64,000 nucleotides of DNA, taken from assembly GCA_041697335.1 (NCBI GenBank), contig JBGUGD010000004.1, positions 32,001 to 96,000 of the forward strand, given 5' to 3'. Positions 57,677-60,282 of the stretch are shown here, in pieces. The notes beneath the pieces were generated by a model. That model made no database searches. It was given only the letters and a program-made list of their open reading frames with translations, and had not been told where the DNA came from. Position 1 is the first letter of the stretch, and each line of letters starts with the position of its first letter. The stretch comes from Vampirovibrionaceae bacterium NZW_1234 (lineage in GTDB: Bacteria > Cyanobacteriota > Vampirovibrionia > Vampirovibrionales > JAGQHJ01). The position numbers and the translations under genes were made by a program.

Positions 57677-58141
57677 CTAATGGGCAGCCACTGCTGCGGT
57701 CATAGCAGGCTTTCGCATCATTTTGCGGACTTCGCCAATGTGTTGCTCTTCTTCGGCAATCATACGGCGAGCATATTCTTCAAACATCACGGACTTGTCT
57801 TTCACCAAGTTCAGCAGCACCCGGTAGAGTTCCATTTGCATTTCCTCATGCTCCAGAGACTCTTCCAGAATATTGTAGATGTCGTGCTGGTGGGTTTCCA
57901 AGAGAGGCCCAATGCTTAAGGACGGGTGATCGTCCAGGTGTGTAATCAACTCACCGGCTTCTTGGCTATGACGCAGCGATTCTTCGGCTTGGCCACGGAG
58001 CCAGGAGGTGATAGGAATCCGATTAGGGCCATAGATCATCAACGAATAGTGAGTATAACGGACCACGCCAGCCAACTCGGTTTCCAGAATCTGATTGAGA
58101 ATATTGACGACTTTGGCTTGATCAAAGGAGTATTCGGGCAC
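57677..58141 (-). CDS. Bacterioferritin-like ferritin-superfamily protein
   Basis: LN.ILE.ELAGVVRY, EESLRH, HE and EEEQH motifs of a four-helix diiron fold. Confidence 0.85.
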   Translation of the reverse strand: MPEYSFDQAKVVNILNQILETELAGVVRYTHYSLMIYGPNRIPITSWLRGQAEESLRHSQEAGELITHLDDHPSLSIGPLLETHQHDIYNILEESLEHEEMQMELYRVLLNLVKDKSVMFEEYARRMIAEEEQHIGEVRKMMRKPAMTAAVAAH

Positions 58142-58269
58142 GATGGATTACCTCATGTGACTTCATTTTTAACCATCAACGATGTTATCTCCTTATTTAA
58201 ACATAGGTTGCGTAAGATGCGTATGCACAAAGCACAGGAATCCGTAATGCCTGAGGTGGAAAAGGGAAA

Positions 58270-58677
58270 TTAGCCTTGAAGCCAGAGCTTGCGTTTCTGT
58301 TTATCATCCGCCAGGCAACCATTACAACCCTTATGGCAACATGACTTGAGCGATTTGTCCTTAATCTCCAGTTCAATGCATGGCCCTAAGGCCGGGGTCA
58401 GAATCTCCTGAAGCCATCCTTTAAGTGCTTTCCAGTCCAGGGTTTTGGGTGCGTCTGTTGTGTCTAGCTTAAGAACCAATTTATTTTTTTTCGCTCGGAT
58501 GGTCCACAGGCGGACGCCCCAATCAGCTTTGAGCTTGTCTGGTGTCGCTCCGGATTGGATTAGGACTTGCTCAGCGAAGGCTTGTAATGTTTTTTTGTCT
58601 TTATCCTGACCAAATAAAGGTAAGTCAGGTTTGGAAGCCTTTGGGAATGAGGAAGATAAGATGGGTTTGGTATTCAT
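58270..58677 (-). CDS. Small protein with a C-terminal CCxxGCxxC metal/Fe-S motif and N-terminal PLFG leader
   Basis: SCCHKGCNGC; ATG 58677 overlaps the upstream TGA (ATGA coupling). Confidence 0.75.
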   Translation of the reverse strand: MNTKPILSSSFPKASKPDLPLFGQDKDKKTLQAFAEQVLIQSGATPDKLKADWGVRLWTIRAKKNKLVLKLDTTDAPKTLDWKALKGWLQEILTPALGPCIELEIKDKSLKSCCHKGCNGCLADDKQKRKLWLQG

Positions 58678-60065
58678 GCCCAAGGACTCCGGGCTGAAGG
58701 GAGAGTATACGGTTGACCATAACTGCCATAGAATGCTGGAGACCATGTCGGGAGCGGTGAAAAGGCTCCCAAGGTGGGTTGAGAGAAGGATGTGTTTGAA
58801 GAGGCCACCCAGGCTGAAGAGGGCATGAAGGCAGGTATCCCCCATGACTGTTGTAGAGAATGGGGTCTTGCCTGTGTTTTGCGAGTATTGGCGGTTTCCA
58901 TTTCCAAGGGATCAGAAGCCTGAGCCAGTTGGGCAAACAGGGCTTCCAAGTTCGGTCCTGCATTCTGAGAGTCATTTTCTCCGGAGAAATTTGCAGTCTT
59001 CCTCAAGACGGCTTTTGGTTGGGTATCGGTGCCATTGCGATACCCAATGCCGGCACGATATCCGGAGACACTATATAAAAAGGCCAGTGCTGGAACAATC
59101 CACTTTAACCCGGCTAAAACGCCAACTGTGGCAACATCATCAATATGGAGACCGACATCCAGTAACTCCGGGTGTCGTTCGTCGTTGAGATTTTTAAAGA
59201 GGCTGCCGACACCATGTTTGGAAACGTTCTGTTTTAGTTCACCGAAAGTTTGGCTGAAGCCCTTGTCGAACAAGGGGTTAAAGAAATTTTTGCCAAAGAA
59301 GTTAGCAATGCTGCTTCCGCCAATGACCCCGAAGGCTGCAATGCCCACCATCATGCTGGCAACCCGAGCGAGCTTGTTTTTGCCAAAAGGGGTCTTTTCC
59401 AGTCCGAAAAGGCACAGAGCCGCTCCGACGTTACACAGTACGATGTTCGATAAATACTGATAAATCCCCTCTTTGGCCTGATTTTTGAATTCTTTTTTCC
59501 AGCGATCGCCATTGAGAACATTACCCAACACACCGCCTAAAACCCCACCTACCACTGGGAAAAAGCCGAGCATGGAAAGGTTCCAAATTTCCCGAAACAT
59601 TTTGGCAGCCCCTTCATTAACCGGAGGGGGGATAATGATGTTTATTAACTTGCTTTGCTGCGCTTTACCAAGGGGAGCGAAGTGCTTATAGAGTTGACCC
59701 ACTTCGCTGGGCTTGAGAATGCGGGTTTTTGATTTATTCAGCAAGGCGTCGAGTGCGGATGAGACGGTAATTTTTTGTTTAGTTAATAAGTCACGGACCG
59801 TTTTAGCAGCTCGGACGGCATTATGAGGTTCAAGAACAGCAAATTTTCGGGTGGCAAACAGGGCGGCCGCGACAGTGGCTGCCATGACGGAGCCAATTTT
59901 GATGAAGCGTTTTCGACGTTCGTCTGCAGGAGCTCTCAACGTTTCGTAGGCGACATACCCGGCCCCGGCTAAGGGAAGAAGGATAGGGGTTGCGCTGTTA
60001 AGGCGCCGCAATAAGAGCGGTTGGTCCAAGTATTTGGCGAAGGTATGAAGAGAGCTAACGTTCAT
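58674..60065 (-). CDS. Hypothetical multi-pass membrane protein, Fur-box-controlled
   Basis: 463-aa ORF with about 7 hydrophobic helices and an ERHPELLDVGLHIDD motif. Confidence 0.85.
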   Translation of the reverse strand: MNVSSLHTFAKYLDQPLLLRRLNSATPILLPLAGAGYVAYETLRAPADERRKRFIKIGSVMAATVAAALFATRKFAVLEPHNAVRAAKTVRDLLTKQKITVSSALDALLNKSKTRILKPSEVGQLYKHFAPLGKAQQSKLINIIIPPPVNEGAAKMFREIWNLSMLGFFPVVGGVLGGVLGNVLNGDRWKKEFKNQAKEGIYQYLSNIVLCNVGAALCLFGLEKTPFGKNKLARVASMMVGIAAFGVIGGSSIANFFGKNFFNPLFDKGFSQTFGELKQNVSKHGVGSLFKNLNDERHPELLDVGLHIDDVATVGVLAGLKWIVPALAFLYSVSGYRAGIGYRNGTDTQPKAVLRKTANFSGENDSQNAGPNLEALFAQLAQASDPLEMETANTRKTQARPHSLQQSWGIPAFMPSSAWVASSNTSFSQPTLGAFSPLPTWSPAFYGSYGQPYTLPSARSPWA

Positions 60066-60212
60066 AATCCCTGCTGGTTTGGTGTTAATAGCGGGCTATA
60101 CTTGGCTCAGAAACAAGGAATGGGACAAATTGGTGATAAAGCAAGAATCGTAAAGAGAGAGTGAGAAGAACACGGTCTGAGCCAATCCTGAGGACGTCAG
60201 AATATCTCTATT

Positions 60213-60282
60213 TGAGAATAATTCTCATAAAGCTTATGAGAATTATTCTCAATTGTCAAATTGTTATTGATAATGATTCTCA
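60213..60282 (-). promoter_or_regulatory. Three Fur boxes overlapping a sigma70 promoter
   Basis: 7-1-7 boxes TGAGAATaATTCTCA (60213-27), TGAGAATtATTCTCA (60237-51) and TGATAATgATTCTCA (60268-82); minus-strand TTGACA(60259-54)-17 bp-TAAGCT(60236-31). Confidence 0.88.

Follow-up and report, generated by a model that had tools for sequence, protein, structure and literature searches.

Transition-metal transport folds are rarely new, and the known families of Fe2+ and Mn2+ importers are few. Nramp proteins, to which MntH belongs, have 11–12 hydrophobic segments. In Escherichia coli, Fur and MntR are each described as a repressor of mntH (PMC8632737), and the small Feo protein FeoC is described as a winged helix with a Cys-rich wing (bioRxiv 10.1101/2022.02.26.482101). 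Here we analysed a 64,000-nucleotide stretch of contig JBGUGD010000004.1 (positions 32,001 to 96,000; assembly GCA_041697335.1) from Vampirovibrionaceae bacterium NZW_1234, hereafter the window, in which a minus-strand gene encoding a 463-amino-acid (aa) membrane protein lies behind a cluster of Fur-type boxes. We propose, with a probability of roughly 0.55, that this protein represents a new family and works on its own as an Fe2+/Mn2+ importer under MntH-like regulation. A first-pass annotation, made from the letters alone, had suggested an undescribed Fe transporter with an Fe-S partner; an undescribed metal importer remains the best reading, the partner falls away, and the metal may be Fe or Mn, the largest clade of homologues lying behind a DtxR/MntR-family repressor.

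Fur-type boxes in the window and in its order

The membrane gene (minus strand) and a divergent plus-strand open reading frame (ORF; 60386–61000) share an intergenic region with three perfect TGA[GT]AAT-N-ATT[AC]TCA boxes, starting at 60213, 60237 and 60268, where chance would give 0.05 per window and none of 100 shuffled windows contained three or more. All three had already been recognised as 7-1-7 Fur boxes, and their exactness and the shuffling bear this out. Box 1 (TGAGAATAATTCTCA; 60213–60227, no strand assigned) lies immediately 3′ of the −10 element of the minus-strand promoter and box 2 (60237–60251, unstranded) occupies its −35/−10 spacer, the two forming a 19-3-19 inverted repeat at 60212–60252, just as the first-pass annotation had described it; box 3 (60268–60282, unstranded) is closest to the divergent ORF and overlaps weak plus-strand promoter-like matches. 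The likely sigma-70 promoter itself, TTGACA-N17-TAAGCT (60231–60259, minus strand), has a perfect −35 element (60259–60254), but its −10 element matches TATAAT at three of six positions, so that a promoter scan omitted it and the earlier wording "near-consensus" was generous. The plus-strand ORF, absent from that annotation, is also served by these boxes and is a second unannotated regulon member. Genome-wide (3.70 Mb) there are four exact box sites, three in the window and the fourth 5′ of a paralogue of this ORF.

The box is retained across the window's order. Among 18 same-order loci, chosen mostly by top score from 42 other genomes matched, every one has a box with no more than two mismatches in the 350 bp before the membrane gene, usually two or three of them, and the neighbouring genes vary while the box stays; the conservation among relatives that the first-pass annotation had proposed to check is thus present. 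The other 161,519 bases of those loci hold only two boxes, both before a homologue of the plus-strand ORF. A TT[GT]ACA hexamer with a box in its spacer or over the −10 element points toward the membrane gene in 11 of the 18 loci and away from it in none, and the window promoter represents the spacer form of this −35-anchored architecture.

Exact boxes number from 0 to 9 per genome, with none in the reversed control. Those examined further precede feoA/feoB (L151–L153, L173, L175 and L177), flavodoxin (L132, L133 and L136) and a TonB-dependent siderophore receptor (L172), and a weaker box stands before feoA of the window genome itself (C29:47618, score 15.8); since it precedes feoAB, flavodoxin and the siderophore receptor, the box marks an iron regulon, in agreement with the earlier assignment. 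Further exact-box targets include a major facilitator superfamily (MFS) transporter and several unannotated families.

We consider it very improbable that the boxes are instead Zur or PerR sites, or that the protein exports metal. The cyanobacterial Zur box is a similar 7-1-7 palindrome, and the window genome encodes three Fur-family proteins, none of which passes a curated cut-off: one resembles Fur, one PerR and one possibly Zur, the protein on C30 being the most Fur-like. The targets named for a Zur regulon, however, are znuABC, COG0523 genes and ribosomal paralogues (PMC6103462), and these were not seen beside the 40 exact-match sites fetched, 19 further sites lying outside that set, whereas the sites do precede feoAB, flavodoxin and the siderophore receptor. 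An exporter would also be ill suited to this promoter, because boxes inside the −35/−10 spacer indicate repression by the metal-bound form.

Several other box sites were recorded in passing. In family f2 the main exact-box target is the MFS transporter (L160–L165 and L184), whose best NCBIfam match, far under the cut-off, is the staphylopine exporter CntE. An unannotated family of 430–495 aa, with an N-terminal CxxCxxC and, in two members, His-rich tails, stands behind a box in the window genome (L195:1670–3157; G000:C13, box at 152014) and in L159, L171, L178–L180 and L186. Two strong boxes at G000:C5:193448 and 193487 (L196:2449–2510) have no clear ORF behind them and possibly control a Fur-repressed small RNA. 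Finally, in two genomes a perfect box is immediately followed by a gene for a beta-eliminating lyase resembling threonine aldolase (L182:2065–3471 and L183:692–2008).

Regulators of the membrane gene in gut relatives

The membrane gene occurs in 108 of the 123 genomes of family f7, which appears to be the gut Gastranaerophilales, and there it lies mostly behind a different regulator. In the best 80 of 485 loci, a DtxR/MntR-family gene stands directly upstream of the membrane gene, mostly abutting it, in 52; of the rest, 13 carry TGCAAAT-N-ATTTGCA, three a Fur box and one a DtxR box only. The promoter of the DtxR/MntR loci, TTGACA-N17-TACAAT, contains the palindrome TGTTAG-N6-CTAACA, which resembles the IdeR box TTAGGTTAGSCTAACCTAA given in PMC10317159 and is present in 44 of the 52 with no more than one mismatch, as against 0.1 in shuffles; in one genome this palindrome precedes the membrane gene alone. 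Among the 13 TGCAAAT-N-ATTTGCA loci, three have a divergent Fur-family gene. In a quick tree the two gut arrangements fell into different starred clades, and three genomes carry one copy of each.

The operator ATGCAAATGCAAATCATTTGCAT, a Fur-box-like layout of GCAAAT hexamers, was noted in L006, L008, L011, L013, L014, L016, L020, L022, L025, L027, L029, L030 and L036. Its exact copies in the five genomes searched lie almost exclusively at the membrane gene, which suggests that it is served by a private Fur-family regulator.

Across 80 of the 123 f7 genomes, the DtxR/MntR-type regulator is present in 62 of 63 with the membrane gene and in 8 of 17 without it; it has no match in the window genome. 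Its metal site is a hybrid, with Asp as at MntR D8 and Cys at the position of MntR E99, as in DtxR, and its motifs LEDY[LIV]E and ACx[IVM]EH are kept in 52 and 51 of the 52 proteins, respectively. The same Asp/Cys site is found in PgMntR, a DtxR/MntR hybrid repressor reported to bind Mn(II) there (PMC4805248), from which the gut regulator differs in its length of ~140 aa without FeoA domains and in a box that also precedes DUF2023. Other neighbours of the membrane gene include FeoB immediately before it (L026), FeoA immediately after it (L032), DUF2023 in 14 of the 80 loci, desulfoferrodoxin and rubrerythrin; in Bacteroidetes, iron depletion is described as inducing DUF2023 164- to 598-fold (PMC10434189). 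An MFS gene also stands behind a DtxR box in L220. In L206 and L208 the DtxR/MntR gene is immediately preceded by the exporter gene mntP, a linkage that speaks for export as well as for manganese. The MntR-like site and the mntP linkage point to Mn and the box before DUF2023 to Fe, so that either may be the metal sensed.

The membrane protein and its proposed role

The 463-aa ORF (58674–60065, minus strand), present as first called, encodes a conserved all-helical core (residues 1–345) that comprises about six hydrophobic segments and, at ~75–155, a soluble insertion, followed by a 118-aa tail rich in Ala, Ser and Pro. Searches of Pfam, NCBIfam and the PDB gave no match for it, and a confident predicted model (predicted local distance difference test score, pLDDT, 92) yielded no significant fold match. 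Profiles of NRAMP/MntH, ZIP, FTR1, VIT1, CDF, MntP and NiCoT gave no match, with the protein queried at E up to 1 and with 121 members searched, for which 25 of 75 weak families were inspected, each of the others being matched by at most two members. FeoB GTPase, Gate and FeoB_C domains were not found either (hhalign probability against FeoB, 0.3%), so the earlier impression that FeoB, FTR1, ZIP and NRAMP motifs are lacking is matched by the profile searches.

An alignment of 190 homologues shows E199, Q203, N207, R297, D303 and D309 to be invariant; H307 is retained except in six short paralogues and D310 except in one row. The His, Asp and Glu residues highlighted in the first-pass annotation are therefore nearly invariant, and in the predicted model the helix breaks at H307 (helices 301–305 and 308–317). 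The short paralogues (L145–L150, 212–309 aa) keep the E/Q/N/R/D/D set and replace H307 by Asn or Gln, and no box was found directly upstream of them. A His-rich paralogue subfamily (L138–L144, 535–593 aa) carries the motif HWWDxILHLDD and a mean of 26 His per protein; the member in L140 is followed by a Fur-family gene and cbiM, a box lying in between, which suggests a Co/Ni/Zn carrier.

Taking these features together, we picture the following scheme. When metal is sufficient, a metal-loaded repressor would occupy the promoter, Fur in the window genome and the DtxR/MntR-family protein in most gut relatives, and metal shortage would derepress the membrane gene. The product would act as a one-component carrier or channel, with neither ATPase nor GTPase, whose approximately six membrane segments may form three helical hairpins and in which Fe2+ or Mn2+ would pass a carboxylate/amide/His site. 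The residues of this site would come from a single face of segment four (E199, Q203, N207 and C211), from N255 and from the broken helix with D303, H307, D309 and D310. We infer repressor binding, the membrane location, the clustering of these residues in space, transport, its direction and the metal.

The same residues could instead form the catalytic site of a membrane enzyme or redox component that spares or depends on metal and that, like flavodoxin, is made in iron shortage, a reading we regard as unlikely. The fold hit on which an enzyme could draw spans residues 20–211, outside the Asp-rich motif and within the range of common arrangements, and bis-His haem is disfavoured because only one His is conserved. 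The chief operon partner of a DtxR/MntR-family autorepressor is typically an importer, and that is the position the membrane gene takes in the 52 gut loci.

It is quite unlikely, in our estimate, that the protein carries not free ions but a chelated metal, a siderophore or some other small ligand, or that it assists Feo or ZIP. The invariant R297 and the conserved R337, Y342, R343 and N344 could bind an anion, the homologue in L026 is co-transcribed behind feoB, and the membrane gene coexists with FeoB across the window's order, in which all sampled genomes have FeoB. Yet 45 of the 63 f7 genomes with the membrane gene are without FeoB, and no TonB-dependent receptor match was obtained in the window genome.

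For a free-ion importer, the genomic background is mixed. The window genome (94.75% complete) has no Nramp, ZIP, FTR1, TonB receptor or ZnuA match, and strong Nramp matches were counted in 1 of the 60 genomes that have the membrane gene as against 11 of the 91 that lack it, counts in which kin are not independent. Several observations weigh against this proposal. No function-bearing homologue or fold match was found for the protein, and Lys and Arg are frequent on both membrane sides, so that charge does not settle the predicted orientation. In the gut set, all three regulatory signals are absent from 11 of the 80 loci, and the iron regulon of the window's order also holds non-transporters, namely flavodoxin together with three or more soluble families that lack annotation. 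The window genome itself has FeoB, its feoAB lying elsewhere; within f7, FeoB is found in 5 of 17 genomes without the membrane gene and 18 of 63 with it, so the membrane gene does not replace FeoB, and the other 12 of the 17 lack both. A ZIP gene in 31 of 32 f7 genomes could supply iron, and family f9 is without both the membrane gene and Nramp.

The membrane protein was found in Vampirovibrionia only, a class of cyanobacterial relatives that do not photosynthesise. Since 174 other genomes of the phylum gave no match, it bears on iron and manganese handling in the sister group of the oxygenic cyanobacteria; the metal supply of gut Melainabacteria, in which the gene is widespread, has so far been unstudied. 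In G151, of the same family as the window genome, a perfect box precedes a 57-aa remnant (L158:1761–1934) matching the N-terminus of the membrane protein, an apparent gene loss with the operator retained. We found no literature on the family, subscription journals and supplements lying outside our coverage; the importer job is of a known kind, and the family, and apparently the fold, have not been described before. With strong guilt by association, a confident model and few residues to mutate, the protein is a directly testable candidate. A bolder extension, which we entertain tentatively and hold to be rather doubtful, would make it the founding member of a new divalent-metal carrier superfamily with a six-helix, three-hairpin fold, a Vampirovibrionia invention that diversified into Fe-, Mn- and Co/Ni/Zn-type paralogues and came under different metal sensors at least three times, within a largely unannotated iron-starvation regulon that includes a new Fe-S carrier.

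Neighbouring genes and comparison with known systems

The membrane gene overlaps the next gene by ATGA (58674–58677), as had been noted, and the latter encodes the expected 135-aa protein ending in CCHKGCNGC... (58270–58677, minus strand). This small alpha/beta protein, with a predicted order alpha-alpha-beta-beta-alpha-beta and a C-terminal Cys tail (CC-x3-C-x-GC), has four invariant Cys compatible with a [4Fe-4S] cluster and is a candidate Fe-S or metal carrier; candidate classes for its domain are the Nfu, DUF59 and BolA Fe-S carriers or CDF C-terminal domains. None of 15 members searched has a Pfam match, and in a set of 48 other genomes from the order, 12 carry homologues. Beyond a 128-bp gap in which a scan found no terminator, a 154-aa ferritin-like gene (57677–58141, minus strand) starts with its own GAGG site; it was correctly called, being related to bacterioferritin/DpsL (PF00210, E 7.9e-15, 55.5 bits against a cut-off of 24.5), and its best PDB match is the DPS-like 8w1d (E 4.7e-6), which does not separate the Bfr and DpsL subfamilies.

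From this order the first-pass annotation had drawn a three-gene system with a FeoC-like partner. An iron transporter that the coupled Cys protein serves as a FeoC-like Fe-S sensor or partner, with ferritin as a store, or one whose Cys protein frees ferritin iron in the way that Bfd releases it, is decidedly unlikely. No Cys homologue adjoins the membrane gene in the 14 other Cys loci or lies within 100 membrane-gene loci (L005–L104), so the pairing, whose conservation was to be checked, was not seen in the other genomes examined; the ferritin-like gene lies beside the membrane gene in none of the other loci examined, making that link one of the window genome only. FeoC as an identity for the Cys protein is not supported, since the predicted order is not that of a winged helix and the genes are unlinked in the other genomes examined. 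The Cys protein and the divergent ORF would rather be separate members of the same iron-starvation regulon, clustered at the window locus.

The divergent ORF (60386–61000, plus strand) encodes a 204-aa protein with conserved His63, His114 and LEDFH, of a second unannotated family without Pfam or PDB match. Of the 15 other loci that hold its homologues (L122–L136), 14 have an upstream box, and in three the homologue lies behind flavodoxin, the position that DUF2023 takes in Bacteroidetes. At the other end, a 13-bp hairpin (57622–57651, unstranded, listed on the plus strand) is a probable terminator between the convergent rsfS and ferritin-like genes, weak taken alone, as shuffles give 3.7 such sites. 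Elsewhere in the window, a 494-aa ORF (51464–52948, minus strand) has a long GGFPGG repeat, Pro/Gln tracts and no Pfam match, and a short CheA-like histidine kinase (55395–56429, plus strand; weak Hpt and HATPase_c) lies upstream of the HD-domain and rsfS genes.

Compared with described systems, the locus resembles FeoABC in its Fur-type box, in the small Cys-rich protein adjoining in the window and in the homologue after feoB in L026; it differs in that the membrane protein has no GTPase, Gate or FeoB_C and that the Cys protein, as modelled, lacks the winged helix of FeoC. With ZIP, FTR1/OFeT, VIT1/CCC1, CDF, MntP and NiCoT it shares the character of a small helical membrane protein with conserved Asp, Glu and His, and one paralogue subfamily has His-rich loops as in the ZIP/CDF-type group. 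MntH is the functional analogue, from which the 463-aa protein is set apart by the lack of a PF01566 match, by about six hydrophobic segments, by the absence of Nramp among its fold hits and by two regulators that act in different lineages of the family and not at one promoter. Both are nevertheless one-component proteins without an energising subunit, both come under Fur and MntR-type control, and the acidic/amide/His site proposed on the broken helix is reminiscent of MntH.
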